From: Escherichia coli
GTDB lineage: Bacteria > Pseudomonadota > Gammaproteobacteria > Enterobacterales > Enterobacteriaceae
DNA length: 64,000 bases
NCBI RefSeq assembly: GCF_003019035.1
Contig: NZ_CP027447.1
Reading direction: 5' to 3' (one strand)
Shown: positions 1 to 30,698 of the stretch, in pieces
Layout of the letters: each line of letters opens with the position of its first letter
How positions within the stretch are numbered: the first letter of the stretch is position 1
Made by a program: the position numbers and the translations under genes
Notes under the pieces: model-generated
Databases searched by the model: none
What the model saw: only the letters and a program-made list of their open reading frames with translations
Told to the model about the DNA's origin: nothing

Positions 1-12
1 GTTGCGGGTTTT

Positions 13-735: not shown

Positions 736-737
736 GA

Positions 738-2791: not shown

Positions 2792-2801
2792 TTGCGCTAT
2801 T

Positions 2802-3348: not shown

Positions 3349-3455
3349 GATGGTCGCTTCGGCAAAATGTCGATGCTATCAGCATGGATGAACGGGGCGT
3401 AGAGGGCAACAGTCTGAAAAGAGAACCGGCCTGTTGTTACAGGCCGGGAAAGGGA

Positions 3456-3668: not shown

Positions 3669-3669
3669 G

Positions 3670-5007: not shown

Positions 5008-5550
5008 ATGAAATTAAGATTTATTTCGTCTGCGCTGGCCGCCGCACTATTCGCCGCTACGGGTAGTTATGCTGCCGTTGTAGATGGCGGTACAATTCAC
5101 TTTGAAGGCGAACTGGTGAATGCTGCCTGTTCAGTGAATACTGACTCGGCAGACCAGGTTGTCACACTCGGTCAATATCGTACCGATATTTTCAATGCTG
5201 TTGGTAATACCTCTGCATTAATTCCATTCACTATACAGTTGAACGACTGCGATCCTGTCGTTGCCGCTAATGCTGCCGTTGCATTTTCTGGTCAGGCGGA
5301 TGCAATCAATGATAATTTATTGGCCATTGCATCCAGTACTAATACAACAACAGCAACGGGTGTCGGTATTGAAATACTTGATAATACATCCGCAATTCTC
5401 AAACCTGATGGGAATAGCTTCTCAACCAACCAGAACTTGATCCCCGGGACCAACGTTCTTCATTTTTCTGCACGTTATAAAGGCACCGGTACAAGTGCAT
5501 CAGCAGGGCAAGCAAATGCTGACGCGACTTTTATTATGAGATACGAATAA
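5008..5550 (+). CDS. sfmA: type 1-like fimbrial major subunit SfmA
   Basis: 180-aa product with signal peptide [22 protein letters not shown] and fimbrillin C-terminus; start moved to ATG at 5008. Confidence 0.88.
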
Positions 5551-5768
5551 TCAAAACCACGTTGTTTTGAATTATATATCACGTCTTATAACAAAGTAAT
5601 GTACCGGTTGTCTGAAGCGGTATGGTGGCAATGTAAATCGAAATCACGTTCACTTTGTATCATGCCGCTTTATTAAATGAAAAGGGAATGATGTGTGTAA
5701 GAAACCAAAGCAATCATTTCTTTATACTCCTTATTTTTGCCGTCAGGAATACACAAGGCGTATTAACT

Positions 5769-6461
5769 ATGATGACTAAAATAAAGTTATTGATGCTCAT
5801 TATATTTTATTTAATCATTTCGACCAGCGCCCATGCTGCCGGAGGGATCGCATTAGGTGCCACGCGTATTATTTATCCCGCTGATGCTAAACAGACTGCG
5901 GTATGGATTAGAAATAGCCATACCAATGAGCGCTTTCTGGTCAATTCGTGGATTGAAAACAGCAGCGGTGTAAAAGAAAAGTCATTCATCATTACACCGC
6001 CACTGTTTGTTAGTGAACCCAAAAGCGAAAATACTTTGCGTATTATTTACACCGGTCCACCGCTGGCGGCAGATCGTGAGTCTCTGTTCTGGATGAATGT
6101 TAAGACGATCCCTTCGGTAGATAAAAATGCATTGAACGGCAGGAATGTTTTGCAACTGGCGATTTTATCGCGCATGAAATTATTTCTCCGTCCAATTCAA
6201 TTACAAGAATTACCCGCAGAAGCGCCGGACACACTCAAGTTTTCGCGATCCGGTAACTATATCAATGTTCATAATCCATCACCTTTTTATGTCACCCTGG
6301 TTAACTTGCAAGTGGGCAGCCAAAAACTGGGGAATGCTATGGCTGCACCCAGAGTTAATTCACAAATTCCCTTACCCTCAGGAGTGCAGGGAAAGCTGAA
6401 ATTTCAGACCGTTAATGATTATGGTTCAGTAACCCCGGTCAGAGAAGTGAACTTAAACTAA
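5769..6461 (+). CDS. sfmC: periplasmic fimbrial chaperone SfmC
   Basis: 230-aa PapD-like chaperone starting [13 protein letters not shown] with signal peptide; start trimmed from the longer track ORF. Confidence 0.88.
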
Positions 6462-6491
6462 CCGAATCATCTGACAATATCAGAGCTAATT

Positions 6492-9101
6492 ATGAAAATA
6501 CCCACTACTACGGATATTCCGCAGAGGTATACCTGGTGTCTGGCCGGAATTTGTTATTCATCTCTTGCCATTTTACCCTCCTTTTTAAGCTATGCGGAAA
6601 GTTATTTCAACCCGGCATTTTTATTAGAGAATGGCACATCCGTTGCTGATTTATCGCGCTTTGAGAGAGGTAATCATCAACCTGCGGGCGTGTATCGGGT
6701 GGATCTCTGGCGTAATGATGAGTTCATTGGTTCACAGGATATCGTATTTGAATCGACGACAGTAAATACAGGTGATAAATCAGGTGGGTTAATGCCTTGT
6801 TTTAACCAGGCACTCCTTGAACGAATTGGCCTTAATAGCAGTGCATTCCCCGAGTTAGCCCAGCAGCAAAATAATAAATGCATTAATTTACTGAAAGCTG
6901 TACCTGATGCCACAATTAACTTTGATTTTGCAGCGATGCGCCTGAACATCACTATTCCTCAGATAGCGTTGTTGAGTAGCGCTCACGGTTACATTCCGCC
7001 TGAAGAGTGGGATGAAGGTATTCCTGCTTTACTCCTGAATTATAATTTCACCGGTAACAGAGGTAATGGTAACGATAGCTATTTTTTTAGTGAACTCAGC
7101 GGGATTAATATTGGCCCGTGGCGTTTACGCAACAATGGTTCCTGGAACTATTTTCGCGGAAATGGATATCATTCAGAACAGTGGAATAATATTGGCACCT
7201 GGGTACAGCGCGCCATTATTCCGCTGAAAAGTGAACTGGTAATGGGAGACGGTAATACAGGGAGTGATATTTTCGATGGCGTTGGATTTCGAGGTGTACG
7301 GCTTTATTCTTCCGATAATATGTATCCTGATAGCCAGCAGGGGTTTGCTCCAACGGTACGTGGGATTGCCCGTACGGCGGCCCAGCTAACGATTCGGCAA
7401 AATGGTTTTATTATCTATCAAAGCTATGTTTCCCCCGGCGCTTTTGAAATTACAGATTTGCACCCGACATCTTCAAATGGCGATCTGGACGTCACCATCG
7501 ACGAGCGCGATGGTAATCAGCAGAATTACACGATTCCGTATTCAACAGTGCCAATTTTACAACGCGAAGGGCGTTTCAAATTTGACCTGACGGCGGGCGA
7601 TTTTCGTAGCGGTAATAGTCAGCAATCGTCGCCTTTCTTTTTTCAGGGCACGGCACTCGGCGGTTTACCACAGGAATTTACTGCCTACGGCGGGACGCAA
7701 TTATCTGCCAATTACACCGCCTTTTTGTTAGGGCTGGGGCGCAACCTCGGGAACTGGGGCGCAGTGTCGCTGGATGTAACGCATGCGCGCAGTCAGTTAG
7801 CCGACGACAGTCGTCATGAGGGGGATTCCATTCGCTTCCTCTATGCGAAATCAATGAACACTTTCGGCACCAATTTTCAGTTAATGGGTTACCGCTATTC
7901 GACACAAGGTTTTTATACCCTTGATGATGTTGCGTATCGTCGAATGGAGGGGTACGAATATGATTACGATTATGACGGTGAGCATCGCGATGAACCGATA
8001 ATCGTGAATTACCACAATTTACGCTTTAGTCGTAAAGACCGTTTGCAGTTAAATATTTCACAATCACTTAATGACTTTGGCTCGCTTTATATTTCTGGTA
8101 CCCATCAAAAATACTGGAATACTTCGGATTCAGATACCTGGTATCAGGTGGGGTATACCAGCAGCTGGGTTGGCATCAGTTATTCACTCTCATTTTCGTG
8201 GAATGAATCTGTAGGGATCCCCGATAACGAACGTATTGTCGGACTTAATGTTTCAGTGCCTTTCAATGTTCTGACCAAACGTCGCTACACCCGGGAAAAT
8301 GCGCTCGACCGCGCTTATGCCTCCTTTAACGCCAACCGTAACAGCAACGGGCAAAATAGCTGGCTGGCAGGCGTTGGTGGGACCTTACTGGAAGGCCACA
8401 ACCTGAGTTATCACGTAAGCCAGGGCGATACCTCGAATAATGGGTATACGGGCAGCGCCACGGCAAACTGGCAGGCCGCTTACGGTACGCTGGGGGTCGG
8501 GTATAACTACGACCGCGATCAACATGACGTTAACTGGCAGCTGTCTGGCGGTGTGGTCGGGCATGAAAATGGTATAACGCTGAGCCAGCCTTTAGGGGAT
8601 ACCAATGTTTTGATTAAAGCGCCAGGCGCAGGCGGTGTACGCATTGAAAATCAAACTGGAATTTTAACCGACTGGCGCGGCTATGCGGTGATGCCGTATG
8701 CCACGGTTTATCGGTATAACCGTATCGCGCTTGATACCAATACGATGGGGAATTCCATCGATGTTGAAAAAAATATTAGCAGCGTTGTGCCGACGCAAGG
8801 CGCATTGGTTCGTGCCAATTTTGATACCCGCATAGGCGTGCGGGCGCTCATTACCGTTACCCAGGGCGGAAAACCGGTGCCGTTTGGATCACTGGTACGG
8901 GAAAACAGTACCGGAATAACCAGTATGGTGGGTGATGACGGGCAAGTTTATTTAAGCGGTGCGCCATTGTCTGGTGAATTACTGGTTCAGTGGGGAGACG
9001 GCGCGAACTCACGCTGCATTGCGCACTATGTATTGCCGAAGCAAAGCTTACAGCAAGCCGTCACTGTTATTTCGGCAGTTTGCACACATCCTGGCTCATA
9101 A
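6492..9101 (+). CDS. sfmD: fimbrial outer-membrane usher SfmD
   Basis: 869-aa usher-sized ORF in chaperone-usher operon context. Confidence 0.9.
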
Positions 9102-9113: not shown

Positions 9114-10121
9114 ATGAAGATAATCTGCAGATTATTATTGGCAATGGCATGTTTGTGTCTAGCAAACATATCCTGGGCTACTGTTTGTGCAAATAGTACT
9201 GGCGTAGCAGAAGATGAACACTATGATCTCTCAAATGTCTTTAATAGCACCAATAACCAGCTAGGCCAGATTGTTGTTTTACCGGAAAAATCCGGCTGGG
9301 TAGGTGTATCAGCAATTTGTCCACCCGGCACGCTGGTGAATTATACATACCGTAGTTATGTCACCAACTTTATTGTTCAGGAAACTATCGATAATTATAA
9401 ATATATGCAATTAAATGATTATCTATTAGGTGCGATGAGTCTGGTTGATAGCGTGATGGATATTCAATTCCCCCCGCAAAATTATATTCGTATGGGAACA
9501 GATCCTAACGTTTCGCAAAACCTTCCGTTCGGGGTGATGGATTCTCGTTTGATATTTCGTTTAAAGGTTATTCGTCCCTTTATTAACATGGTGGAGATCC
9601 CCAGACAGGTGATGTTTACCGTGTATGTGACATCAACGCCTAACGATCCGTTGGTTACACCTGTTTATACCATTAGTTTTGGTGGCCGGGTTGAAGTACC
9701 GCAAAACTGCGAATTAAATGCCGGGCAAATTGTTGAATTTGATTTTGGTGATATCGGCGCATCGTTATTTAGTGCGGCAGGGCCGGGGAATCGACCAGCT
9801 GGTGTCATGCCGCAAACCAAGAGCATTGCGATCAAATGTACGAATGTTGCTGCGCAGGCTTATTTAACAATGCGTCTGGAAGCCAGTGCCGTTTCTGGTC
9901 AGGCGATGGTGTCGGACAATCAGGATTTAGGTTTTATTGTGGCCGATCAGAACGATACGCCGATCACGCCTAACGATCTCAATAGCGTTATTCCTTTCCG
10001 TCTGGATGCAGCTGCGGCAGCCAATGTCACACTTCGCGCCTGGCCTATCAGTATTACCGGTCAAAAACCGACCGAAGGGCCGTTTAGCGCGCTGGGGTAT
10101 TTACGCGTCGATTATCAATGA
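9114..10121 (+). CDS. sfmH: fimbrial adhesin-like subunit SfmH
   Basis: 335-aa ORF with signal peptide after the usher gene; FimH-like position. Confidence 0.8.
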   Translation: MKIICRLLLAMACLCLANISWATVCANSTGVAEDEHYDLSNVFNSTNNQLGQIVVLPEKSGWVGVSAICPPGTLVNYTYRSYVTNFIVQETIDNYKYMQLNDYLLGAMSLVDSVMDIQFPPQNYIRMGTDPNVSQNLPFGVMDSRLIFRLKVIRPFINMVEIPRQVMFTVYVTSTPNDPLVTPVYTISFGGRVEVPQNCELNAGQIVEFDFGDIGASLFSAAGPGNRPAGVMPQTKSIAIKCTNVAAQAYLTMRLEASAVSGQAMVSDNQDLGFIVADQNDTPITPNDLNSVIPFRLDAAAAANVTLRAWPISITGQKPTEGPFSALGYLRVDYQ

Positions 10122-13479: not shown

Positions 13480-16452
13480 TTACCAGTGCACTCCAATGGT
13501 GAGAAACGCATTGTTGCGCTCTCCGTTACGTTGATTAATCGCCTTAAAGGTATGTTGATACTCGACGCCGAGACTGACTTTGTGCGGCCAGGCGTCGTAG
13601 TGCGTCTCGCCGGTCCAGATATTCCAGCGGACCCCGACACCGCCAAGCTGCGCGCCCTGAGTGCCTTTATCACGATAGCCGTTGTCCTGAACGTGAGCGT
13701 AAGGCTCAATAGTCTGTCCGTTAGCTACCTTCTGATGCCAGCTGACGCGATAATCTGCCGTCCACGCCTGAATATCCTGGCGGATATATTGCGCTGCATC
13801 GAGGTACAGGTTTTGGGCAAACCAGCCTGAACCGTTCGGGTGCCATTCGTCGCTGTATTTGCCGCCATTAAAGAATGAGGCGCTGGCGCGCAGCATGGTA
13901 TCGGATGCGCCATTTTGCCCGTTCAGCGGCAACTGCTGTTCGACGGCGAGGAAAAAGATCTGATCGCGCAGCGGCTTCCAGCGCAGACCGGTGCCGGACA
14001 TCGGATTTTTCACCGGCATCATCACCCCGTTTTCTCCAGTATCGGCAAATACACGGCTGTAAACCGAGAGCAGGTCGCCTTCCAGCAGCATATTGCGTCC
14101 GATGCGATACTCGGCTTCCAGTTGCCCGTAGCTACGATAGCTTTTCCCTGGCGCTGCGCCGCCGACATTATTGTTAGCGGTACTCATTGCGCCGGAACGC
14201 AAGCCGATAGAAGAATCGAAACTGAACGTCCAGCGGCGACCGACCTCCTCATGCAGACGGCGGAAATTGAAGCGTTGCTGATTTTGCTCTGGGGTCAGTG
14301 GGGTTATCAGCGCCTGATTATCAATGTCATCAATCACCAGCCGGGCGTAGTGCTGCGTCGCAGGCATGTCATCCAGACGCTGGTTCACGTAGGCCAGTTG
14401 TCGGATAAGTGCCGGATCGTCCGGTAGCCCTTTATGCGCCTGTTCGAGCATTTCCCGCGACTGTGCGATATCACCGCTATCCCACAAGGCGTAACCGAGC
14501 GCTGCCTGGGTGTTGCTATTATTCGGTTCCAGTTCCAGCGCGGCGCGCAAATCACTCACCGCCGCCGGGACATTATGACGTTGGCGATAAATTGTCGCCC
14601 GCGCAACGTAAGCGTTGGCAGAAGGCGCAATATTGATTGAGCGCGTGAGATCGTTCAGTGCGAGTTCCGGCTGACCAGGAATGTAACGTTGCGCATGCAG
14701 CCACCAGTAGAGGGCATTGTTTCCCAGCCCACGTTGTTCTGCCTGCTGAAGCCAGCGATCGCGAGCCGCACCATTTCCTGCCGCCTGGGCGGTATTGGCA
14801 GCAGCAAGCAGATCCTCATTGCTCATGTCGTGAAGACTGATTTTCTGCCAGGCCGCCAGTGCGGTGGCGTAGTCCTCAACCTGATACGCCTGATAGGCTA
14901 CCGCACGATGTTGCCAGGCGTTCGGTTGTCGTTGTTCGGCCTGAAGCCATGCATACAACGCCACACCGGGTAGCGTGTCCCGATAACACTTTGCCAGACG
15001 GTTCCAGGCGGCGGCATCGTAGGAAGGCGACATATCGCCCAGCAAGCGAACTATTGCCGGGCAATTATCTGCAATACCCGGCAACTGACTTTGCCACTGA
15101 CGTTGCTCCGCCAGCGGTAAAGGTTTCGATAAAATCGCCACCTTCGCCGGCGTTGCCAGGTAAGGATGACTTTCCAGCAGAGACGCCAGTCGCGCCATTA
15201 ACGTCTGGCTGACACGCGCATCGCCCTGGAAAGGATAGCGTTGCAGCAATAAATCGGCAGCTTCGCGTGACTGCTCGTTCTGCATCAGTTGCCAGGTCAG
15301 TTGATCCAGGCGGGTAAGATTTGCCGGTTCTTGCTGATACAGCAATCGTGCCAGACGCAGAGCTTCAGCCTTGTTATGGGTCGCTACGCTAACGGTATAA
15401 CGCTCCTCAAGCATTTCATTGGCGGGGAGGGTGGCGAGCAGTTTTTGCGCTGCGTCGTACTGACCTTCTTTTAACAGCACCGGTAGCGTCGCGCCAACAA
15501 CATACTGGCGGTTATCGGCAAACTGTACCGTATAATTCGCCAACGCCTGAACGGGGTTGACGCTGTATTTAGATAACAGATAGAGCCAACTTTTCTCTTG
15601 TGCGTCCGTGGTAAACAGCGGCTTATTTTCAATGAGATAATGCTGGAGGCGCGCTTTTTCGCCACGATAAGCCAGCGCGGTCGCGTAAGTAATATATGAC
15701 TGAGGATCGGTGAAGATCCCCTGTGATTGCAGCGCCAGGATCCGATCATCCAGCTGCGCGGCAAGAAGCACGTCAAACCACTGACGGCGTTCTGCCGCGC
15801 TTAATGTGTTCTGCTGGCGTGCTTCATTATATAGCGTATCTGCCTGGGACCATTGTTTCAGGTAGATTGCGCGTTGCAGCAGATCGGTTCGCAACGTTTT
15901 TCCTTCCGGCGATGCAGCAAACGTCGCATCGTTTAGTTGCGCTCTGGCGACAGGTAATTGTGCCAGCCGCAGGGCATTCTGCCCGACTTCACTGCGACAA
16001 CGCAGGGTCGGCGCAGCGTCGCACGCTTTTTGCTGGGCAAGCAGTTCTTCAACAGTCGTAACGCTTTTCACTTCAACTGGAATAGCCGCCAGACTGCGCT
16101 CAAGTCGGGCATCTCCTGGGTGACGTTTCAGTTGATCCTCAAGCAACAGCCGCGCCCGGTCATCATGACCAAAATGGCGATAGGCTTCCGCAAGGTATAA
16201 AGTCAGCGGAATATTATCCGGCACCTGCTGGTGTATATATTCAAATTCGCGGATGGCGGTTGCTTCGTCGTTATTTTTCTGTGCCTTCAGCGCCTTGTCG
16301 AGACGGGGATAAATAACGAAATGGCGATAATCGCTCAGCCCCAGCTCTTCTGCGCTGGTGCCGATATTGTCTGCGAGTGCGCTGGTACTCAATAAAGACG
16401 TCAGCAGTAAACCAGACCATCCGATGACGCGATTAAGGTTATTCTCCTTCAT
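13480..16452 (-). CDS. nfrA: bacteriophage N4 adsorption protein A (outer-membrane TPR protein)
   Basis: 990-aa product from MKENNLNRVIGWSG... with signal peptide; start trimmed from the 997-aa track ORF. Confidence 0.9.
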   Translation of the reverse strand: MKENNLNRVIGWSGLLLTSLLSTSALADNIGTSAEELGLSDYRHFVIYPRLDKALKAQKNNDEATAIREFEYIHQQVPDNIPLTLYLAEAYRHFGHDDRARLLLEDQLKRHPGDARLERSLAAIPVEVKSVTTVEELLAQQKACDAAPTLRCRSEVGQNALRLAQLPVARAQLNDATFAASPEGKTLRTDLLQRAIYLKQWSQADTLYNEARQQNTLSAAERRQWFDVLLAAQLDDRILALQSQGIFTDPQSYITYATALAYRGEKARLQHYLIENKPLFTTDAQEKSWLYLLSKYSVNPVQALANYTVQFADNRQYVVGATLPVLLKEGQYDAAQKLLATLPANEMLEERYTVSVATHNKAEALRLARLLYQQEPANLTRLDQLTWQLMQNEQSREAADLLLQRYPFQGDARVSQTLMARLASLLESHPYLATPAKVAILSKPLPLAEQRQWQSQLPGIADNCPAIVRLLGDMSPSYDAAAWNRLAKCYRDTLPGVALYAWLQAEQRQPNAWQHRAVAYQAYQVEDYATALAAWQKISLHDMSNEDLLAAANTAQAAGNGAARDRWLQQAEQRGLGNNALYWWLHAQRYIPGQPELALNDLTRSINIAPSANAYVARATIYRQRHNVPAAVSDLRAALELEPNNSNTQAALGYALWDSGDIAQSREMLEQAHKGLPDDPALIRQLAYVNQRLDDMPATQHYARLVIDDIDNQALITPLTPEQNQQRFNFRRLHEEVGRRWTFSFDSSIGLRSGAMSTANNNVGGAAPGKSYRSYGQLEAEYRIGRNMLLEGDLLSVYSRVFADTGENGVMMPVKNPMSGTGLRWKPLRDQIFFLAVEQQLPLNGQNGASDTMLRASASFFNGGKYSDEWHPNGSGWFAQNLYLDAAQYIRQDIQAWTADYRVSWHQKVANGQTIEPYAHVQDNGYRDKGTQGAQLGGVGVRWNIWTGETHYDAWPHKVSLGVEYQHTFKAINQRNGERNNAFLTIGVHW

Positions 16453-18676
16453 TTTCGGACTCCAGTTGCGCAACCTTTTCTGTGTTTAAACCTGCTTTGA
16501 GTAATAGTGATTGCATCGAAACTTGTAATTCGCGTTGAATTGTCAGAACGCGATCCAACGTTTCCTGGCTGATAACGCCTTCGGTGACCAAAAACTTGCC
16601 GAGCGGCAGAGAACTGCGTTCATGGCGCAATAACAACACGTTAATTGCTGAACGATTAATATGACCGAGCGTGGTCAGTATTTCGGCGAACAGGAACTGA
16701 TGCGGCACATATTGCCGCCAGATTTCACCGGCCTGCTGTTCCGTGAGCCACTGATGCTGAACCGCATTGTACAACATTGCCCGCGGATCGTGACCGCGTC
16801 GGCGCGCATACCAGTGGCGTAACCCCGTGACAATTTGTCCCCGCAGAACAATGACGTAACGCACTTTGCGTCCGACTTTACGCGTCAGGGCCGCCAGCGA
16901 AACCGGGTCAATACCATCTTCACTGCCGACAATTAACTCATCATTTTCCAGACGCAGCGGCAGCACTGCATAATGCAGCGCCACGGAGGCCGGCATCTCG
17001 GCAATCAGTGATGAAGGGATCTGCCAGGCGTCGATCGACTCCCACGCCACGCCGTTTTGCTCTGCCAGCGCCTGTGCCAGCTGCTCGGCGCTAATCAGCC
17101 CCTGCATCAGCATTGAACCGCCAAGGCGTAGACCTTCGACGCGATTACGCAGTGCTGTATCGAGTTGTTCTTCAGTGATGACCTGATTTTCCAGCAGAAT
17201 TTGACCTAACGGGCGCAACGAGCGGGTATCGCCAGTCACGCTGGGGAAGTCATGCGTTGTTTTATCCCACGCCACGCGACGTGGATCGCCGTGTTGAAGT
17301 ACCTGTTTTAACGCGCGCCAGTTGGCCATGAAGTTAATCAGGTTGCCCCAGAAAAGACGCAGGACAGATAGTAGCCCCTGCGTCAGGCCGTAGTAGCCAG
17401 TGACGAAAATCACCCGCTGCACGATGCGGTTAACCATCAAGCCAAAGTTTAGCCACAGCAGGGTCATTAACCATGCGCTGCCGCTGAAAATAGAAAGGAA
17501 ATGCCAGGCATCGGGCCACAAACTTTCATACGCCAGTAACAGCAAAAGCTGGATCATCACCAGCATCGCGAGGAAGCTGACAAAGTTACTGATTGCCCCT
17601 TTGCGGTCGCGCCAGAGAAAGTAGTTCAGCGTCAGGCTGGAGGTCCATTTGTGGGTTTTAAAGCCCTGGAAAACAATGCCGATGATCCAGCGAGATTTTT
17701 GTCGAACCGCCGTCGAAAAGGTATCGGGGAAATATTCGCGCACGCAGATCATGTTTGACGTCCGCGCGTGCTGTAAAAATTTACGCTGCTCGCGTTCTTT
17801 GGCTTCGTCCACCACCGGAAAACGGACAAAAATTTCCGTCATACCTTTTTCTTTCAGGCGGAAACCAATGTCGTAATCTTCAGTAAGACTCTGCACGTCG
17901 AAAGCAATACCGTCACCGTCAGCTAACAGTGCGGTCACGGCGCGGCGGCTGAAACAAGTACCGACACCTGCGCTGGGCACCTGTCCGGCGAGGGCTTCAC
18001 GCACCGGAACATCTTTGCCATGCAGTTCTGAAAACTCATCAATGTAAGTCATGCTGGTGAAGTGCGTCCATTCGCGTTCGAATGGGTATACCGGGATCTG
18101 AATCAGATCTTTACGCTCGACCAGATAGTTGAACAGACGCAATTCCATCGGTGAAATTACGTCTTCGGCGTCATGCAGAATAAAACCAGCAAAAGCGAAA
18201 TTGGCGCTACGCTCAAACTGGGTGATGGCGTCCAGCACGTTGTTCAGGCAGTCGGCTTTGCTGGTGGGGCCAGGACGCGCGCAGACTACCTTATGCACGT
18301 TTGGGAAGCGAGCGCACACTTCGTCAACATCACGCTGAGTATCGGGGTCGTTGGGGTAGGTGCCAACAAAGATATGATAGTTTTCATAGTCGAGCGTGGT
18401 CGCCGCCAGCTCGGCCATATTGCCGATGACGCCCGTTTCATTCCACGCCGGAACCATAATCGCTAACGGTTTTTCATCTGGTTTATACAGTTCGCGGTAA
18501 CTCATTCGCGGGTAGCGGCGATAAACACTCAACTTGCGTTTAATGCGGCGTACCCAGTAGACGACATCAATAAAAAAATCGTCCAGCCCGCTGATGAACA
18601 TGATGACCGCTAACGTTATCGCGATTACTTTTAAGCCATATAGCCAGGTTGCAAAAACATCAAGAAGCCAGTCCAC
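16439..18676 (-). CDS. nfrB: bacteriophage N4 adsorption protein B (inner-membrane glycosyltransferase)
   Basis: 745-aa ORF, membrane N-terminus plus GT2-like domain; overlaps the nfrA start (operon). Confidence 0.92.
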   Translation of the reverse strand: MDWLLDVFATWLYGLKVIAITLAVIMFISGLDDFFIDVVYWVRRIKRKLSVYRRYPRMSYRELYKPDEKPLAIMVPAWNETGVIGNMAELAATTLDYENYHIFVGTYPNDPDTQRDVDEVCARFPNVHKVVCARPGPTSKADCLNNVLDAITQFERSANFAFAGFILHDAEDVISPMELRLFNYLVERKDLIQIPVYPFEREWTHFTSMTYIDEFSELHGKDVPVREALAGQVPSAGVGTCFSRRAVTALLADGDGIAFDVQSLTEDYDIGFRLKEKGMTEIFVRFPVVDEAKEREQRKFLQHARTSNMICVREYFPDTFSTAVRQKSRWIIGIVFQGFKTHKWTSSLTLNYFLWRDRKGAISNFVSFLAMLVMIQLLLLLAYESLWPDAWHFLSIFSGSAWLMTLLWLNFGLMVNRIVQRVIFVTGYYGLTQGLLSVLRLFWGNLINFMANWRALKQVLQHGDPRRVAWDKTTHDFPSVTGDTRSLRPLGQILLENQVITEEQLDTALRNRVEGLRLGGSMLMQGLISAEQLAQALAEQNGVAWESIDAWQIPSSLIAEMPASVALHYAVLPLRLENDELIVGSEDGIDPVSLAALTRKVGRKVRYVIVLRGQIVTGLRHWYARRRGHDPRAMLYNAVQHQWLTEQQAGEIWRQYVPHQFLFAEILTTLGHINRSAINVLLLRHERSSLPLGKFLVTEGVISQETLDRVLTIQRELQVSMQSLLLKAGLNTEKVAQLESENEGE

Positions 18677-18855
18677 ACAAAAACCTTACATTAACGCTGG
18701 TTATGTTTAGGGTGGCGTATATTAAAGTTTTTTATGAATTGTGACAGCTTTTTATCATTAATAGGTAGGATTATTGCGGCACGTTATTTTTACACTGGTT
18801 ATAAAAGTTGCCGATTGCGTAGAATGTAGACAAAAGCGTGGTGTCAAGGAGGGGA

Positions 18856-20160
18856 GGGTAACGCAGGGAAAGATTACGAAAGCCCGCTCCCCGCAAGGAC
18901 TGACGCCAGATAGTTTCTGTCCATGGCTGCTTTTCGCATCTTACGTCTTAACCCTGCCTTGAATACCTTATCATTCGTCAAAATATTAATAGCGATGTGC
19001 CGTATCCCTGAAAATAATTCTGCTGCATTTCCTCTTCTTATTTTGCAGTCGTCTTCATTCATTACCACGTCCAGACGCCAGTGCAGCTTATTCTCCACGT
19101 GCCAGTGGTTTCGGATTGCTGTGGCGAACTTCTCTGCGGTTAAATCAGCAGAACTGATATAATATCTGACCGTCATTTCGGGCTCTTTCTTTTGTTCTGC
19201 TATTATTGACCGAAAGGAGACTGCCACGCATAATTTCTTCAGACCTTTCCATTCAAACGTGAAATCAATAAGTTCATCAGGGACATCGCAAACAATGTGA
19301 AGACGGATTTCTTCTCTGCCGTGACTCTTTTCACTCATTGCGTAACTGTCATGCTCTGGATTATTTAATTCTTTCAGCGGAAATTTTTCCTCGAAGGCTT
19401 TATTTAGCCGCCCCTGGTTTCCTTTTACAGCGAATAAATAATCACCTCCCTGTTTTTGTATCTTCTCTGCAATATCTTTCTGGCAACCCATCGCATCAGT
19501 TGTGATGATTTTTCCTTTAATATCCAGCATGTTAAGAAGTTCTTGGATAGCTGTAATCTCATTGGATTTCTCATCCGTCCTGATCTGTCCGATGACCAGA
19601 CTATGCATTGTTGAGAACGCACTAATGACATGAATCGCTCCCTTGCGGCGACTCTTGTCATAAGAGTGCCGGAGCGTTTTTCCATCAATTGCAATGACGC
19701 CTTTATCATCTGAAGAATGGCAGTCACGCATCCAGTTAATAAAGCACTCGTGAAATTTTGCAGGACTGATACAGGATACAACTCTGGCAATGGTATCGTG
19801 AACAGGAATACCATTTTCAAAATCACCATATTGCTTCAAAAAATCGAGATGTGTTTCCCCAAAATCCTCTATATCTTCCCAGCCTTCTGCACCAGAAATA
19901 ACGGCACAAATAGTCAACAGTAGAATATCCGACAATTTATGTTCCACTTTCCAGGCTTGTCTGTACTCGGGAATAACAGAAATATGTTCTATCAATTTTT
20001 TAAGTACCATTTTGTTCTCCTTAATTATGTAAGGAGTATTTGATCATGTATAAGCAATAAAAAACAGCTTCAGGTAATGAGGAATATCTCAATTTTTAAA
20101 CATAAAATGCGAATTATTTAGTACAAAAAAGCAGCGTTACGTGATCTTTCCCTGTGTAAT
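18856..20160 (-). mobile_element. H-repeat / ISAs1-family insertion sequence (about 1.3 kb)
   Basis: Contains the 378-aa H-repeat-associated transposase; imperfect terminal inverted repeats centred on CAGGGAAAGAT (18861-18878 versus reverse complement of 20139-20156, 15/17 identical); boundaries approximate to about 5 bp. Confidence 0.75.
18874..20010 (-). CDS. ISAs1-family (H-repeat-associated, YhhI-like) transposase
   Basis: 378-aa [53 protein letters not shown]...; near-identical to the recalled E. coli H-rpt protein family. Confidence 0.9.
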
Positions 20161-20834
20161 CCCCCAGCTAAATCATGAACTTTTTGAGCCATTTTACTTA
20201 ATTCAGGGCAGGCTCCTAAACCTAATGGATCTGTGAAGCAACACGGATTCAGCACATAACCATAAGTGTTTAGTCCACCCAATACACCCAGGGGGTCACT
20301 CACCAGATACATCCCGGTCTCCGGCTCGTAGTACCGGAACCGGTTATAGCACAGCCCTGACTCCGCATCCCGCCACTGCCCCGCATACAGCAGACCGGGG
20401 TCCGCTTCTGCGTCTCGCTCCCCGCGCGGGTCCGGGTAGTCCCTGTCTGCGCTGACGCTGAGTGCCAGCCCCCACAGGCTGGTCTGCTCCGCACGCCACA
20501 CCACGTTACCCTGACTGTTAAAGAGCATCACCGGGCGGCCTGTCAGGTCGCTTACCGCATGGCTGGTCCGCGTCACCCACTGCGGGGCCACGGACGGGTG
20601 CGGCTGCCGTACCCGGCTGAACTGCTGGCTTATCAGCTCAAAGCCGTTAAACACCAGGTACCGCACACTGTACAGTTTATCATCGCGGTATTCCCGGATT
20701 TCCGCAATAGTGTCGCCGTCCCACAGATATGTGATGCGGAGGGCTTTTTGTTTGCAGCGTTTCTCTGTCCGTCTGCCACTGGCGTCGTGGCAGTATTCCC
20801 ACTGCTCACCCCGGGCGCTGCGGTAGCCGATCAC
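20118..20834 (-). pseudogene. orphan rhs C-terminal fragment (last about 206 aa of Rhs core plus a truncated alternative tip)
   Basis: Homologous to residues about 1260-1470 of the upstream Rhs through the PxxxxDPxGL core end (DPLGL); no upstream ORF or canonical start; only about 19 native residues follow DPLGL before the reading frame runs into the IS terminal repeat. Confidence 0.7.
20217..20834. repeat. direct repeat copy 1 (rhs core 3' end, orphan copy)
   Basis: About 620 bp, high-identity copy of 21694-22311 visible in both nucleotide and protein alignment. Confidence 0.75.
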
Positions 20835-20863
20835 GGCTGTCGTGGCGGAACTTTATCTCTTTT

Positions 20864-21253
20864 TTATTTAATCCAGTAAGCTAATCTCTCACCAATCTTC
20901 AAATTTTCTCTTTTGTAATAAAATACAGTATCAAAGTTAATGGATATTTTTTTCGCAATAACTTTGAATTTCAATTCAAATTCCGAATAAAACTCTAATA
21001 CTAACATTTCACGAGCATTGTCAGTGCAACTTGATAGCTTAATAAACTCCTCATTAAGATCGCATGACCAGTCCATAACACCGCTAATATAGCATGGCGT
21101 GTCTATTATTATTTCCAGTGTGTGATAGTAAGAAAGGTCATCACTCCCGGAAATAATCAAGCGATTATGTTCATAAAGAAAAACTGAAAAATCCAACCAA
21201 CTTTCTTTCCAATTATGGTGCTTTATATCATTAATTATGTTTTGCTCACTCAT
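20864..21253 (-). CDS. candidate cognate immunity protein for the Rhs C-terminal toxin
   Basis: 129-aa AT-rich ORF; its ATG overlaps the rhs TGA stop in a 4-bp ATGA overlap; positional analogy to rhsI genes; no family recognised from sequence. Confidence 0.6.
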   Translation of the reverse strand: MSEQNIINDIKHHNWKESWLDFSVFLYEHNRLIISGSDDLSYYHTLEIIIDTPCYISGVMDWSCDLNEEFIKLSSCTDNAREMLVLEFYSEFELKFKVIAKKISINFDTVFYYKRENLKIGERLAYWIK

Positions 21254-24200
21254 GGAATAGTTCCTGTAGGCAATGGTATATGAGTATCATTTGCAGCTCC
21301 TGGATTATAATTCGGACTTTTAGTTTTCAAATCAGATGTATGATGCCAACTGCCATCAGGAGAACCATACTCCCAACCATAGCCTTGATTAGTCGCAGGA
21401 TTTGTTCCACTTTGGCTTCTACCAATCCTATATATGGGGCCATTGGCAGAATTACTCCCTGCTGGAGCAGTAGGGTTTACATCATGAGCCCTTACTTCAT
21501 ATTTATAATTTCCGACGGTGAATTTTTCTTTAAATTTTATAGGGTAGTTATGCCCAGACAAGCCTTGCCGATGTAAAGCATAATTTAACACATCCTGCGG
21601 TGAGGTATTTTTAATTGCTTGATGCGCTTGTGCTGCTGTCATACCTTGAGAACGATTGTATTTATACCAATCATACATCACAGGACATATAGCTAATCCC
21701 AAAGGATCAACATACCCCAGCGGATTAGGCACATACCGGTAAGTCTGCTCACCCCCCAGCAACCCCAGTGGATCACTCACCAGGTACATCCCGGTTTCCG
21801 GCTCGTAATACCGGAACCGGTTATAGCACAGCCCCGATTCCGCATCCTGCCACTGCCCCGCATACAGCAGGCCGGGGTCGGCTTCCGGGTCCAGCTCCCC
21901 GCGCGGGTCCGGGTAGCCGGTGTCTGCGGGCAGGCTGAGTGCCAGCCCCCACAGGCTGGTCTGCCCCGGTCGCCAGACGGTTTTACCTTCACTGTTAAAG
22001 AGCACCAGCGGACGGCCCGTCAGGTCGCTCACCGCATGATTCGTTCGCGTCACCCACTGCGGGGCCACGGACGGATGCGGCTGCCGTACCCGGCTGAACT
22101 GCTGACTCAGCAGCTCAAAGCCGTTAAACACCAGGTGCCGTACGCTGTACAGTTTATCATCCCGGTATTCCCGCATTTCCGCAATACTGTCGCCGTCCCA
22201 CAGATACGTAAAACGGATTTTCTTCCGGTCGCAGCGTTTTTCCGTCCGCCTGCCGCTGGCGTCGTGGCGGTATTCCCACTGCTCACCCTGTGCGCTGCAA
22301 TACCCGGTCAGCTGGTCCCGGCTGTCCCACCGGAACCGCTCTGTTTCCGGGCGGTAGCCGTCACGGTGTCTGGTGCGGCTGACCATCCGGCCTGCGGCGT
22401 CATAGCTGTAGTCTGTGTTTCCGGTCTGTTTCAGCCGGTGGCCGCGCTGATACATGTCAGTATCCACGCTTATCCGGTGCCTGCCCGCCGACTGCGCCTT
22501 CAGGTAGCCACAACTGTCATAGCCATAGGACTCATCGCCTTCGCCATAGCCCAGCCCGGTGCCTGAGGCTGTCACCGCCGTGACCTGGCCGTTCCGGTCC
22601 AGCCGGTACTCCCGCCGTGTTTCCCGTCCGTAGTCTTCCCGGCTGGTGACAGCCGACATATTGCCCGCGCTGTCGTAACGGTACTCCCGCACCAGTGAGG
22701 GGAGCAGTCCGCCCCATGTGGCTTCCGCCGGGAAAAGTCCGGCGCGCTGGCTGGTAAGCTGACCGGCTGCATTCCAGCCCTGCTCACAGGCAAAACCCCG
22801 GTTACTGTGCCGGAGCACTTCACGTCCTGCCTCATCACGGCTGAACGTCAGCGTCTCATCCCCCGGCAGGATAACCTCCGTCAGTTCTCCGGCGGCGTTG
22901 TAGCGGTAGGTGGTTTTCAGCAGGGATTCACCGGGGTGTCTGTCGCGTTCATCTTCCGGTGGCAGGATACAGCGGATGACGGTGTGTTCATCGGGGTGGT
23001 GGTATTCAATGGCCCGTCGGCCCTGAGTGGTGACATTCACCCGCCCGCGTTCGTCATAGCCGGTGCGCTGTGATGTACCGTCCGGGCTGAAGATACCCGT
23101 CAGCCTGCCGGATTTGTCATAGGCATACTGCGTTTTGCCTTCCGGCGAGATGACTTCTGCCAGGCGGCCTGCGGCGTCCCGGCTGTAGAGGATAGTTTCC
23201 TCCAGGCCGTTAACCCTGGCGGTACAAAGGCCATCGGCGTCATAGCGGTAACGCCAGACCACGCCGCCCCAGTCACGCTCTTCCGTCACCCGTCCACAGT
23301 TGTCCAGAATATAACGGTATGACTCGCCCTGCGGATTGATGACTTCTGTCAGTTGCAGCGTGTCTTTATCGTAGCGGTACTGCCAGCGGTGGCCTTCACC
23401 GTCCGTTCGCGCCACCGGCAAATCGAACGGGCCGTATTCCATCGTCCAGACAACGCCGTTGCCGTCCGTCCAGGCCAGCAGGTTGCCGTGGCGGTCATAG
23501 CGAAATCCTTCCGCGCCGGTGCCAGTGCGTTCAAGGCCGCTCAGTTTATGGTGCTGCTGCCACCGTAACCGCACTGACTGACCGCCGGGGCCGCGCATCT
23601 TCACCGGCAGGTCGTGACCGCTGTATTCGGTGTGGTGTTCACGGCCCATCACGTCGGTGAGTGTTTCCGGCCGGTTGTGGTGGTCGTACTCTATGCCCAG
23701 ACGCCGTTCATCCTGGCGGAATATCCCCGACAGCAGCCCCTGCGGCGTGTACGCCAGCCGGGTCTCTTCGCCCTGTGGCGACACCAGACTTACCGGCAGG
23801 CCGCGTTCATCACACTGCTGCGTCCACATCTGCCCGGCAGGGTCGGTGATGTTGCTGAGCAGGCCGCGCTCATCATAGCAGTACTGCCACTCCGCACCGT
23901 CTGCCGCCGTGTAACGGCTTAACTGACCGTGTGCGGCGTTGTATTCAAACTTCTCCACCCGCCCGGCAGGGGAGTGGCGGGCCAGCAGGTGATGGAATTC
24001 ATCCCATTCATACATGGTGGTGCTGCCGTCCGGCGCTGCTTCCCGCAGAATATTGCCGTCAGGATCATAGTAATAACGGTGAATGCCCTTGCCGTCCGTC
24101 ACGGTGGTGCAGCCGTCACCATAGTCCAGCGTGGCGTTGTAATAGCCCTCCGCCCCGGTGACGGTCACGCACCGGCCCTGTGCATCGTAGGTGAAACGGC

Positions 24201-26103
24201 TCCACGTCTGGTCGTTATCGGACCAGCGGATGATCCGGTCCGCAGCGTCGTACTCATAAAACAGGTGGTAGTCCAGCCGCGCATCCGCTTCTGTCAGCCG
24301 CCCCCGCGCATCCTGTTCGTAGGTCGCCAGCATCTGTATGCCGTTATCCGTACGGTGAATGGCTTTCAGGTAGCCGCTGGCATGGTACGTCAGTTTAAGC
24401 CGGATCCCGTCGGTGTGACTGACACCCATGATGCGGTACTGGCTGTCGCGCTCAAACGTGATGCGGTTGCTGGCGGTGTCGCTCATCCCGCCCAGCATGT
24501 ACATCCGGTCTGCGGGGCTGTGTGCCAGACGGTCATCGCAGGTATCGTCAGTCACCGGGTGGCGCAGGCGCATTCCCGGAAAGGCGTCATAAAAGAAGCG
24601 GCTGCTCAGTGCATCACGGTCGAACAGCTCCAGGTAATCGTCGCGGCGGCGCAGAATGTACTGGGCGTGATACGGGTTAACCGCCGTATCACTGTCACCG
24701 TCGAAGGCAAATCTCAGCGTGGTTCCCTGGCTGATGATATCCACCCGGTTTCCCTGTTCACGCACCCAGGCGTATTCGCTCCAGGAGTCGCTCCAGCCCA
24801 CGCCCGTCAGACCATGCAGCGGCAGTACAGAACTGTGGAAACGGGTGAAGGAGAGGGGGAGTGTCTGGCCCAGCGTAAAGTCGGTACGTTCGTCGCAGTA
24901 TGCGCCGGTTACCGGATCGACAGGATCTGTTACCCATCTGATGACTTTATTGGCAATACTTTTTAACGACTTACCTGTTTTCCCCAGCAACGCGCCGAGC
25001 TTTGCCCCCAGCAGCTTCCCGCTTTTCCCCAGCAGGTTTCCCAGTTTGCCGAGTTTCGCCAGATTCCCCAGTTTTCCCAGCAGTCCCGCGGGCGGCAGAA
25101 GATAGCTGGCTATCGTTATTCCCCCCAGGATCATTCTCTGCCACGGCGGGAACTCCGGCTGGATATCCAGATAGGTCACCTGTTCACCGCCAATAAAGAC
25201 GTCCGGCGAACCTTCCACGATTGCCGCGCTGCACTCCAGTTTGTCCCCTTTGCGTGCGGCAGTCTGATTGTTGATAAAGACGTTGCTGCTGCCCTGGGCT
25301 ATCCTCGGTGGTTTGTTCTCCTTGTCGCAGAGCGCCGTGTCCTCACCGGCTTCCGGGAAATCCACGTCTTTTTTGATTTCGCCACGCCCGCCCACCATGG
25401 TGGCAAACTCCATTAATACCGGACCGGCGGGAAACAGAAGCGATGCGCCGGCGCTGACGCGATCCATAATACCGGCATTGCTGTCCGTCAGGGTGATAAC
25501 AGCGTTCCCCCAGGCCTTCGCCAGTGGTACTGCTTTTTCCGCTGCCGATTCAAGCAGGTCAGTGGCAATATCACCCCATGAGGGTTCCCCCTGTGGTGGA
25601 GAGGGTATTGCTTCAGTCAGGGGAGGAGGGGGAAGGGTGACGGCGGCCCTGGCAGCGGGCTTTCCGTTAATGTTTACATTTTTAGAACCAGTATTGATGG
25701 CCCCGTCCGTGTCACAAAAACTGTTTATCCATGATTCAAGCTGGTTCTGTTTCTCCTCCACATAATCACTCGCCTTATAGCTGGCATACATCAGCGCAGG
25801 CACCAGAACCAGCGCATAAGGGCCGGTGGCACAGGCGGCCATAATCAGGCAACCTTCTGCGATGGTCACTATCGCCCCCAGCACGGCCCCTGCCAGCGCC
25901 CCCAAAAAACTCTTGTGCTGAATTTCATCGCCCAGCCTGGCTGCGGGGGGGCCAGACTTTTTTGATGCCAACATCTGTGCAATGGCTTTGTCGTTGGCTG
26001 CCCGTTTCATCTGGCTGGCGACCATCGCCTGCTGTGACAGCATTCGCATTGCCAGCGTACCGCCTGCGGTCGCTCCCTGTGGCCCGCCTGGTCCTTCACT
26101 CAT
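21250..26103 (-). CDS. rhs: prePAAR/PAAR-domain Rhs-family polymorphic toxin (T6SS effector) with variable C-terminal toxin tip
   Basis: 1617-aa ORF: N-terminal AARLGDEIQH (prePAAR-like AARxxDxxxH), hydrophobic helices, PAAR-like segment (ARKGDKLECSAAIVEGSPDVFIGG), long YD/Rhs repeat region, core terminating at DPLGL, then a 147-aa low-GC tip. Confidence 0.9.
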   Translation of the reverse strand: MSEGPGGPQGATAGGTLAMRMLSQQAMVASQMKRAANDKAIAQMLASKKSGPPAARLGDEIQHKSFLGALAGAVLGAIVTIAEGCLIMAACATGPYALVLVPALMYASYKASDYVEEKQNQLESWINSFCDTDGAINTGSKNVNINGKPAARAAVTLPPPPLTEAIPSPPQGEPSWGDIATDLLESAAEKAVPLAKAWGNAVITLTDSNAGIMDRVSAGASLLFPAGPVLMEFATMVGGRGEIKKDVDFPEAGEDTALCDKENKPPRIAQGSSNVFINNQTAARKGDKLECSAAIVEGSPDVFIGGEQVTYLDIQPEFPPWQRMILGGITIASYLLPPAGLLGKLGNLAKLGKLGNLLGKSGKLLGAKLGALLGKTGKSLKSIANKVIRWVTDPVDPVTGAYCDERTDFTLGQTLPLSFTRFHSSVLPLHGLTGVGWSDSWSEYAWVREQGNRVDIISQGTTLRFAFDGDSDTAVNPYHAQYILRRRDDYLELFDRDALSSRFFYDAFPGMRLRHPVTDDTCDDRLAHSPADRMYMLGGMSDTASNRITFERDSQYRIMGVSHTDGIRLKLTYHASGYLKAIHRTDNGIQMLATYEQDARGRLTEADARLDYHLFYEYDAADRIIRWSDNDQTWSRFTYDAQGRCVTVTGAEGYYNATLDYGDGCTTVTDGKGIHRYYYDPDGNILREAAPDGSTTMYEWDEFHHLLARHSPAGRVEKFEYNAAHGQLSRYTAADGAEWQYCYDERGLLSNITDPAGQMWTQQCDERGLPVSLVSPQGEETRLAYTPQGLLSGIFRQDERRLGIEYDHHNRPETLTDVMGREHHTEYSGHDLPVKMRGPGGQSVRLRWQQHHKLSGLERTGTGAEGFRYDRHGNLLAWTDGNGVVWTMEYGPFDLPVARTDGEGHRWQYRYDKDTLQLTEVINPQGESYRYILDNCGRVTEERDWGGVVWRYRYDADGLCTARVNGLEETILYSRDAAGRLAEVISPEGKTQYAYDKSGRLTGIFSPDGTSQRTGYDERGRVNVTTQGRRAIEYHHPDEHTVIRCILPPEDERDRHPGESLLKTTYRYNAAGELTEVILPGDETLTFSRDEAGREVLRHSNRGFACEQGWNAAGQLTSQRAGLFPAEATWGGLLPSLVREYRYDSAGNMSAVTSREDYGRETRREYRLDRNGQVTAVTASGTGLGYGEGDESYGYDSCGYLKAQSAGRHRISVDTDMYQRGHRLKQTGNTDYSYDAAGRMVSRTRHRDGYRPETERFRWDSRDQLTGYCSAQGEQWEYRHDASGRRTEKRCDRKKIRFTYLWDGDSIAEMREYRDDKLYSVRHLVFNGFELLSQQFSRVRQPHPSVAPQWVTRTNHAVSDLTGRPLVLFNSEGKTVWRPGQTSLWGLALSLPADTGYPDPRGELDPEADPGLLYAGQWQDAESGLCYNRFRYYEPETGMYLVSDPLGLLGGEQTYRYVPNPLGYVDPLGLAICPVMYDWYKYNRSQGMTAAQAHQAIKNTSPQDVLNYALHRQGLSGHNYPIKFKEKFTVGNYKYEVRAHDVNPTAPAGSNSANGPIYRIGRSQSGTNPATNQGYGWEYGSPDGSWHHTSDLKTKSPNYNPGAANDTHIPLPTGTIP
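21253..21693 (-). other. Rhs C-terminal toxin domain (147 aa after DPLGL); candidate WHH/HNH-type nuclease
   Basis: Abrupt drop in GC content after the DPLGL junction; motif GSWHHTSD...NYNPGAAN...THIP near the C-terminus resembles the His-His...Asn...His arrangement of HNH/EndoVII-fold toxin domains. Confidence 0.45.
21694..22311. repeat. direct repeat copy 2 (rhs core 3' end, main gene)
   Basis: Homologous to 20217-20834; substrate for homologous recombination that would swap toxin tips. Confidence 0.75.
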
Positions 26104-29249: not shown

Positions 29250-30698
29250 TCACTCTCTCTCCGGCAGCATAATCACAAACCTTGACCCCCGCGCATCTGA
29301 CGTTACTGCAACCGTGCCTTTATGCGCGACAACAATTGATTTCACTATCGCCAGCCCAATGCCGCTACCTTCGCCTTTTCGCTGGCGGGAAGGATCAACG
29401 CGGTAGAAACGGTCAAACAATCGCGGTAAGTGTTCGGGCGCAATGGGCGTACCGGGGTTTTCGACGGAAACTTGCACCTGGTGATCGACCGTCTGGCAGC
29501 GCACAACAATTGCCTCTCCGGGTGGCGTATAACGCAGGGCGTTCGAAAGCAGGTTGCTTAACGCCCGACGCAACATCAGCGGATCGCCCGCAACCTGACA
29601 CTCGTCACCAACAAACCGCAACTCCACGCCGCGATCTTCCGCTAACGCCTCGAAAAAATCGAACACTTTGCCGACTTCATCCGCCAGGTTGAGCATTTTC
29701 TTTTCGGGGATTAACTGGTTGTTATCGGCCTGAGCGAGAAACAGCATATCGCTGACCATTTTCGCCATTCGAGTCAGCTCTTCGAGATTAGAGTAGAGCA
29801 CATCTTCCAGCTCCTTCTGACTGCGCGACTGGCTGAGGGCGATTTCCGTTTGCGTTATGAGATTCGTAATCGGCGTGCGAATTTCGTGAGCGATATCCGC
29901 TGAGAAATTGGACTGGCGGGTAAAGACATCCTCGATACGCTCGATCATATGGTTGAACGACAGCACCAGTTGTTCGAGTTCAATGGGCACGGTCTGTGGA
30001 TCGAGGCGAACGTCGAGATCTTTCGAGGTAATGTTCTGGATTTGACGGCTGACGCTGCGAATTGGCGCGTGGCCTTTATGTACCGCCAGCAGCACGATAA
30101 AGACGATCAGGATGCTGATGATCGATGCGGTCATAATAAGTTTATTCATCAAATCATTTATGTAATGAAGATGAAAATCGATCGAAAGCGCGATGTAGAG
30201 CGTATAAATCGGTTTGCCGTCCACCAACGGGCCAACCGGCAAGTTAATCATCCGCCAGTTGCTGTGTTCCATATGCCCGTGACCGTGGCCTGGCATCATA
30301 ATCGTCGGGCCGGAAAGGAGATACACCTCGCCACCCTGAGCGTCTTTATCGGGTATGGCGTCACGCGTAAACTCGCGGATATCCGGCGCACCGGGGGAGT
30401 GATACACCGTTTTGCCGTGGCTATCTGCCAGGGAAATCAACACGTTGGAATAACCACTGACGATATCTTCCAGCGTCATTAAGCGTCGGGCTTGCGTCTC
30501 GTCAGGATGATTAAGTACCCGTTCAAGGGTGGCGCTAATTTCTTTTAAATCATTAATATCCTGCTCGGCAAAATGCACTTTCACTGAGTGGATCATGATC
30601 CATGCAAAGGCGAAAAACGCCGCGATGGTGGCCAGGCTGATAAAAAAGGTCAGACGGGTTGCCAGCGAAAACGGGCGCTGAAATGGCTTACTGACCAT
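29250..30698 (-). CDS. cusS: copper/silver sensor histidine kinase CusS
   Basis: [19 protein letters not shown]... with HisKA/HATPase regions; overlaps the cusR stop. Confidence 0.93.

Follow-up and report, generated by a model that had tools for sequence, protein, structure and literature searches.

Probable loss of an orphan Rhs deaminase cassette by an IS-associated deletion at the ISEc1 of the Escherichia coli cusS-nfrB island

Results

Layout of the Rhs island between cusS and nfrB

The DNA analysed here is a stretch of 64,000 nucleotides from E. coli (the window), and a 3-kb query taken from it was 100% identical to the chromosome of E. coli strain FDAARGOS_497. Between cusS and nfrB the window carries an Rhs island whose genes follow one another on the minus strand in the order cusS, vgrG, a DcrB-like gene, a PAAR-Rhs effector gene, a 129-aa ORF, an orphan rhs fragment, a copy of ISEc1 and nfrB (Table 1), the last of which encodes a c-di-GMP-activated glycosyltransferase. 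In the island-free O145 strain RM12367-C1, cusS lies just 149 bp from nfrB, and this Rhs locus is also empty in K-12. The nfrB/cusS interval is listed among the conserved Rhs loci as 'locus 4' (Jackson et al. 2009, Table 3; PMC2935791). Pfam assigns the PAAR_motif, DUF6531, RHS_repeat and Ntox30 domains to the main Rhs protein of the window. The product of the 129-aa ORF matched no family in Pfam or NCBIfam and is presumed to be an immunity protein of an undescribed family, and an Rfam scan of positions 18000-21500 gave no matches.

Table 1. Features of the window from nfrB to the main rhs gene
Feature	Position	Strand	Description	Evidence
nfrB	16439-18676	-	Intact, 745 aa; backbone gene flanking the island	ORF list and RefSeq annotation of FDAARGOS_497
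Native nfrB-cusS intergenic DNA	18677-18818		142 of the 149 bp of the island-free form kept	Alignment with the empty site of O145 RM12367-C1; megablast match stops at 18818
Remnant of the nfrB-proximal island terminus, 45 bp	18819-18863		Absent at the empty site	Alignment and junction strings
ISEc1 (H-repeat; ISAs1 family)	18864-20154	-	1291 bp	K-12 yhhI/ydcC copies align exactly here
ISAs1-family DDE transposase	18874-20010	-	378 aa, full length; co-directional with nfrB	NF033564, PF13808 and PF01609
Orphan toxin-domain remnant	20155-20216	-	20 codons plus 2 nt, GACPELSKMAQKVHDLAGGL(H)	Translation, intact homologues, PF24174
Orphan rhs core fragment	20217-20834	-	Ends in DPLGL	Alignment to main rhs; TIGR03696 and NF041261 matches; annotation
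129-aa ORF	20864-21253	-	Directly downstream of main rhs; presumed to confer immunity to the main Ntox30 toxin	ORF list; role inferred from position
Main PAAR-Rhs effector gene	21250-26103	-	1617 aa, Ntox30 C-terminal toxin; downstream of vgrG and the DcrB-like gene	Pfam and annotation

At the other edge of the island, the cusS-side boundary (29250-29285) falls within the final cusS codons, and the C-terminus of CusS differs there from the ...RFVITLPA end of the island-free strain, so that the C-terminus of this sensor kinase has been rewritten by the island. By annotation, positions ~1-8600 of the window hold Lambda-like prophage tail genes (L, C40 peptidase, tail assembly, J, Lom and tail fibres), which lie upstream of appY-ompT-envY-ybcH-nfrA.

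Identity and exact ends of ISEc1

An insertion sequence is counted as an isoform of a reference element at a nucleotide identity of at least 95%, and members of the ISAs1 family, as characterised in ISfinder, are ~1.2-1.5 kb long with imperfect terminal inverted repeats that start with CAGGG. ISEc1 copies from elsewhere (yhhI in K-12 and ydcC in other strains) aligned to positions 18864-20154 with ~97% identity over 1291 bp, with 35-39 differences between the window element and the individual reference copies. The termini of the element are CAGGG...CCCTG (CAGGGAAAGAT... at one end and ...ATCTTTCCCTG at the other), and the imperfect inverted repeats at 18864-18888 and 20130-20154 match at 19 of 25 positions and at 16 of the first 18. 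The transposase scored 415 bits against the NF033564 (transpos_ISAs1) profile, for which the cutoff is 70, and covered 314 of its 314 positions; it also matched PF13808 and PF01609. By every one of these measures of identity, the window element is ISEc1.

The ends were fixed independently by a copy of ISEc1 that splits tssA, a T6SS gene, in E. coli strain d1-58 (NZ_CP187961.1; 1501-2791 of locus L015). This copy is flanked on both sides by a perfect 10-bp direct repeat, GTCAACTGAC (gtcaactgac), and since it ends at CAGGG/CCCTG, so does ISEc1. A second fix came from an uninterrupted copy of the orphan toxin, whose homology to the window ends at 20155. The earlier note on this DNA had recognised the insertion sequence and had suggested that its ends be defined by alignment to reference copies and that a target-site duplication be sought. 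Alignment to the ISEc1 copies placed the ends within a few bases of the note's own positions (~18856 and ~20160), which lie 6-8 bp too far out, and the distance from the left end to the nfrB start codon at 18676, given as about 180 bp, measures 187 bp from the corrected end. As for the duplication, the window copy has none (its 10-bp flanks are gagggtaacg and tgtaatcccc), in contrast to the perfect 10 bp at tssA of d1-58. The missing duplication reflects the rearranged history of the window copy and not the identity of the element.

Repeat finding had extended the inverted repeat outward by 11 bp (18853-20165), and this extension was rejected as part of the insertion sequence, because the d1-58 control and the K-12 copies end at CAGGG/CCCTG and the flanks are uninterrupted in other strains; the extra 11 bp are host sequence. 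The two host flanks, 18853-18863 (GGAGGGTAACG) and 20155-20165 (GGGGGATTACA), resemble each other in inverted orientation with 7 of 11 positions matched (binomial p ~0.008, calculated by hand), which could reflect either a weak target preference of ISEc1 or chance. When ~20 junction flanks were compared by eye for a target consensus, a faint and unconvincing recurrence of (G)ATTAAC/ATTACA was seen, several other junctions having ATTAAC-like sequence at their ends.

The orphan rhs reading frame runs into ISEc1

The orphan ORF (20118-20834, minus strand; 238 aa) reads across the end of the insertion sequence, and its segment 20118-20240 (minus strand) translates to CFTDPLGLGACPELSKMAQKVHDLAGGLHRERSRNAAFLY followed by a stop codon. 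Position 20154, where the IS ends, supplies the third base of a His codon, and the tail encoded by the IS consists of 11 codons and a stop (RERSRNAAFLY). The earlier note had correctly placed the IS end within this ORF and had attributed about the last 13 codons to IS sequence; the tail is shorter than that because the L and H that precede it are native toxin residues (S. boydii reads ...AGGLHAPDL). Upstream of the toxin remnant, the orphan core aligned with the 3' core of the main rhs gene over ~590 bp at ~85-90% identity and ended in ...CFTDPLGL, so that the partial core and DPxGL motif of an rhs tip are both present, together with a TIGR03696 match. A complete toxin domain after DPxGL is not, since the window keeps 21 of 138 residues, including 13 of the 117-residue stretch that PF24174 matches in the intact homologue described below, and the remnant lacks the catalytic HAE and PCxxC motifs. 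A cognate immunity gene immediately downstream is also absent, as the insertion sequence adjoins the remnant directly. The loss of the toxin remainder and immunity gene, which the earlier note had pointed out, was thus borne out: homology breaks at the IS end and nothing of either is found on its other side. RefSeq annotates the orphan fragment as a pseudogene without either terminus; the orphan is a dead stub, a relic rather than a toxin.

Exactly the same tip/IS junction was found in 82 complete E. coli genomes, ST648 strains among them, and therefore it is not an assembly artefact. In a set of 5426 complete E. coli genomes, all 82 that carry the tip end at the same nucleotide, each at one place only, and the remainder of the toxin occurs in none (0/5426).

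An intact deaminase orphan at the same locus in Shigella boydii

The 42-aa tip peptide gave no match in a word-indexed protein search, but an exhaustive HMMER search with the tip recovered the intact toxin, a 151-aa protein (P0001) that is 100% identical to the tip over the shared 31 residues. P0001 continues with ...AGGLHAPDLRAIRN..., includes HAE and PCPHC motifs and matches the MsddA-like deaminase family PF24174 with E=1.7e-28; the members of its cluster are Shigella boydii proteins. On the strength of these matches, the lost orphan toxin is identified as an MsddA-like deaminase, of which P0001 and P0003 are intact forms. In S. boydii CP119446.1 and related assemblies, the cusS-nfrB locus likewise houses the module, with its toxin intact. 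The gene order there, pieced together from two loci (L019 and L021), begins with cusS, vgrG and a DcrB-like gene, followed by a PAAR-Rhs gene with a TNT toxin and a 79-aa ORF, then by the intact deaminase orphan and a 182-aa ORF (the presumed immunity gene), then by a second Rhs-core orphan with a Tox-MPTase4 (metallopeptidase) toxin and two small ORFs, and finally by ISEc1 and nfrB. The intact toxin and the 182-aa ORF occupy positions 10001-10948 of L019 (CP119446.1), and the product of this ORF has only a weak DUF416 match. None of the 5426 complete E. coli genomes carries the 182-aa ORF.

Homology with the window stops between positions 10038 and 10039 of L019 and resumes at the IS end at 13911. 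Against the S. boydii array, the window thus shows two gaps, each flush with an IS terminus: one of 3872 bp at the 20154 end and one of 71 bp at the 18864 end. The S. boydii array is a relative of the window island and not its direct ancestor (its main toxin is TNT and not Ntox30, and its orphan core is shorter), so that these figures give the DNA loss in the window lineage with some uncertainty.

ISEc1 is a resident of the nfrB-proximal end of the island

Alignment with the empty site of RM12367-C1 placed the junction between backbone and island between 18818 and 18819. The 45 bp that follow (18819-18863) are island DNA and are present in every island-bearing strain examined. In strains WR14-2, NCTC9113, Res13, SS17, M10, RM13322 and LR-64-1 and in two S. 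boydii assemblies (L019 and L021), a further 71 bp lie between the 45-bp segment and the insertion sequence, and with this junction ISEc1 occupies the nfrB-proximal position in ~2284 of 5426 complete E. coli genomes (~42%). The junction without the 71 bp is also found in strain EE72d, where the flank carries several SNPs, the IS is 3.7% divergent and the cusS-side flank is wholly different. Given the 45-bp segment, the wide occurrence and the EE72d junction, the insertion sequence is neither the island boundary nor specific to one lineage at this site; ISEc1 is a long-standing, terminal component of the island and no recent arrival. Of the earlier proposal that an IS-associated deletion forms the left island boundary, the deletion stands, with gaps flush with the IS, while the boundary does not, as 45 bp of island DNA lie beyond the element. 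No outgroup was found that shows the 71-bp form to be ancestral, and a scan of genome contigs with an island-terminal 19-mer for an IS-free island in other species gave no match.

Variation on the cusS side of ISEc1

While the nfrB-side junction is nearly invariant (two alleles), the nine ISEc1 copies compared at the nfrB locus of E. coli are followed, right after CCCTG, by at least seven different sequences; the S. boydii flank is of the WR14-2 type. Several of these cusS-side flanks are 3'-truncated genes, namely the main PAAR-Rhs gene in RM13322, an Rhs core fragment in M10, an Rhs fragment in NCTC9113 and partial ORFs in WR14-2, EE72d and S. boydii. The IS copies at the nfrB locus are mosaic and differ from one another by 2-4%, and the variants in the last ~25 bp of the cusS-side IS end track the type of junction. 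At the first variable site the window copy has a base of its own (CAGGGA, where every other copy at the nfrB locus reads CAGGGC). Its end on the cusS side is that of the ydcC and FY10 copies and not that of the resident copy of S. boydii and WR14-2, and over its first 300 bp it is no closer to any other copy than to the resident ones at the nfrB locus. In EE72d, two solitary ISEc1 terminal repeats (9370-9394 and 9681-9705 of locus L012) stand in the orphan array beside truncated PAAR/Rhs fragments; these are relics of earlier IS insertions and deletions.

Origin of the truncation

Deletion of the DNA next to an insertion sequence, or recombination between two copies in the same orientation, is textbook behaviour of IS1, IS26, IS903 and others. 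Such deletions leave DNA missing flush with the IS termini, the IS itself kept, its target duplication lost and a series of variants that share one flank, and the window locus has all of these: the comparator DNA is missing flush with both termini, there is no duplication, the IS is of full length and the variants are one-sided. Together these are the standard signature of an IS-associated deletion. We consider it very probable that an IS-dependent rearrangement removed all DNA between the resident ISEc1 and codon 21 of the deaminase toxin of the first orphan. In the window lineage, ISEc1 would have been resident at the island end before the truncation, and, by comparison with the S. boydii array, ~3.9 kb would have been lost, comprising the toxin remainder, the presumed immunity gene of 182 aa, and the second, metallopeptidase orphan with its accessory ORFs; on the nfrB side another 71 bp would have gone. 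What is left is a dead orphan stub that is read for 11 codons into the IS before it stops; no function is gained, and a silent toxin/immunity cassette is lost.

Two molecular routes may have led to this structure, and we infer the route from a comparison that both fit about equally well. By the first, the deaminase gene would have received a second copy of ISEc1 by transposition, which later recombined with the resident one; by the second, one IS end would have transposed intramolecularly and deleted the adjacent DNA in doing so. The mosaic structure of the IS speaks mildly for the first route, IS-IS recombination, and suggests a hybrid element, but does not decide between the two, because gene conversion takes place among the copies. 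To our knowledge, the transposition chemistry of the ISAs1 family is uncharacterised, and the deletion cannot be assigned to a route for this reason as well. An intermediate, with the IS in an otherwise complete deaminase gene and a 10-bp duplication, would carry the signature ...ATCTTKCCCTG together with GGGGATTACA and TGCGCCAGATC, and none was found in the 5426 complete E. coli genomes or in a metagenome scan. In the metagenome scan, an 18-mer located just past the breakpoint gave 33 matches, all of them chance (flanks ~25% identical), and a scan of genome contigs with a 25-mer of the uninterrupted target gave no match. The earlier note had described the element as inserted into the orphan tip. 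Such an insertion is one possible history among others: ISEc1 stands at this nfrB-proximal position in ~2284 genomes, and its other flank varies between lineages.

Alternatives to deletion from the resident copy were weighed against the same evidence. A new ISEc1 could have inserted into the deaminase gene, after which a single leftward deletion swept away everything from the toxin remainder through the immunity gene, the further orphan and the resident IS to the 71 bp, and stopped 45 bp from the island edge. One insertion and one deletion would then account for both flush gaps, and the unique CAGGGA and the cusS-side end of the ydcC/FY10 type would be those of the newcomer. However, EE72d has the identical 71-bp-deleted junction next to a different cusS flank and a divergent IS, and therefore this junction is either older than the toxin truncation or the product of two separate events at one nucleotide; a wholly new element is also disfavoured by the start of the window IS, whose first 300 bp are no further from the resident copies than from any other. 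We regard this history as somewhat unlikely. Less probable still, and in our judgement clearly unlikely, is that homologous recombination brought in the truncated orphan together with the cusS-side portion of the IS as one block, with the IS and the Rhs core as anchors. Such an import would suit the mosaic IS copies and the change of the cusS-side IS-end variant with flank type across lineages, and the Rhs core and the IS do provide long homologies on either side of the cassettes. Against it, no second locus with the junction exists in the 5426 genomes, each of the 82 carrying it in one place only, and an import merely shifts the original truncation to a donor strain.

Position of the IS end relative to nfrB transcription

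The earlier note had also raised an influence of the outward-facing IS end on nfrB transcription, a suggestion for which we found no sequence support. In its fullest form, the nfrB-facing end would alter nfrB expression through an outward promoter or read-through from the transposase gene, and the arrangement would be maintained for that effect. The transposase gene, the orphan, the rhs operon and nfrB do lie on the same strand, no terminator-like site is predicted between the transposase stop codon and nfrB, and a perfect TTGACA (-35 hexamer) at 18841-18846 (minus strand), in the 45-bp remnant, points to nfrB. This hexamer has no acceptable -10 element at a spacing of 16-18 nt, and the promoter scan passed it over. 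The scan called no promoter-like site at the IS end or close to it, its 5 hits comparing with 5.3 in shuffled controls, and the terminator-like predictions near the IS end were also no more numerous than in shuffled controls. Because most of the native upstream DNA is kept (142 of 149 bp), the native nfrB promoter region is probably intact, and island-free strains already have a co-directional gene, cusS, ending 149 bp upstream. Moreover, nfrB is a pseudogene in several IS-bearing strains, which argues against selection for the arrangement. Overall, we hold an effect of this kind to be very unlikely. In three of ten other island-bearing E. coli strains sampled, nfrB is frameshifted or has an internal stop (L005 1702-3374, L011 1181-3374 and L012 3646-5883), which suggests recurrent loss of the N4-receptor polysaccharide pathway.

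Finally, it is hardly credible that the orphan was a short stub from the outset and that the IS simply inserted into its tip without any DNA being lost: nothing speaks for this except that the IS end falls within the ORF, whereas the 10-bp duplication that ISEc1 makes, as in d1-58, is missing, the toxin and its downstream ORF are intact at the same locus in S. boydii, and homology breaks exactly at the IS end with no remainder beyond the element.

Discussion

H-repeats were reportedly described by Zhao et al. in 1993 and by Hill et al. in 1994 as components of the K-12 Rhs elements distal to the core extensions. The H-repeats of K-12 RhsB and RhsE (yhhI and ydcC) are the same 1291-bp element as the window copy, ~97% identical to it and with the same 378-aa ISAs1-family transposase, and they have the same placement, at the distal end of an Rhs element past the core extension and the orphan ORFs and co-directional with rhs. 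The RhsB copy of K-12 (yhhI) and the ydcC copy of EcPF18 are also without target duplications, like the window copy. The window copy differs from those of K-12 in standing at another Rhs locus, cusS-nfrB, and against a truncated deaminase toxin. Intact homologues of the tip belong with the MsddA-like/SsdA-type deaminase toxins (PF24174), matching the family and containing HAE and PCxxC, whereas the window tip keeps no catalytic motif.

The island occupies the chromosomal position of locus 4 in the C-terminal displacement model and shares the architecture described there, in which vestigial C-terminal tips that keep partial core and DPxGL stand behind a full-length rhs gene (Jackson et al. 2009; PMC2935791). 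In contrast to the displacement model, in which a new tip displaces the old one, it was an insertion sequence that cut the distal tip here; the main text of that paper does not use the terms 'insertion sequence', 'transposase' and 'H-rpt'. The association of H-repeats with Rhs elements is noted in the E. coli W genome paper, according to which transposition of the H-repeat had not been observed experimentally (PMC3032704). Against that statement, the tssA copy of d1-58 with its 10-bp duplication is natural evidence that the H-repeat transposes.

In essence, the window case is an ordinary, lineage-specific variant in the structure of a known island, a routine IS-associated deletion that involves no novel type of element; both the H-repeats as parts of Rhs elements and Rhs locus 4 were known before. 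What a RefSeq-style reading takes for a 238-aa 'orphan ORF' is a dead stub whose tail is encoded by the IS, and the lineage of 82 genomes has lost a silent deaminase toxin/immunity cassette that is still present in S. boydii at the same locus. The practical weight of this loss is small, and the current understanding of Rhs systems, ISAs1 elements and nfrB is unchanged by the finding.

A broader reading, which we put forward tentatively and hold to be rather doubtful, is that ISEc1/H-repeat serves as a fixed 'end-cap' of Rhs orphan arrays, pruning cassettes flush with its ends, and also as a portable homology anchor for the exchange of toxin/immunity modules. This reading fits because the nfrB-side junction, in its two alleles, is shared by ~42% of genomes, whereas the cusS side takes its many forms, each with its own IS-end variant. 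If true, it would explain the association of H-repeats with Rhs elements, which has stood unexplained for 30 years. The locus itself offers a clean natural series of an insertion sequence eroding a polymorphic-toxin cassette array, and as such is usable for studying how orphan arrays are trimmed.
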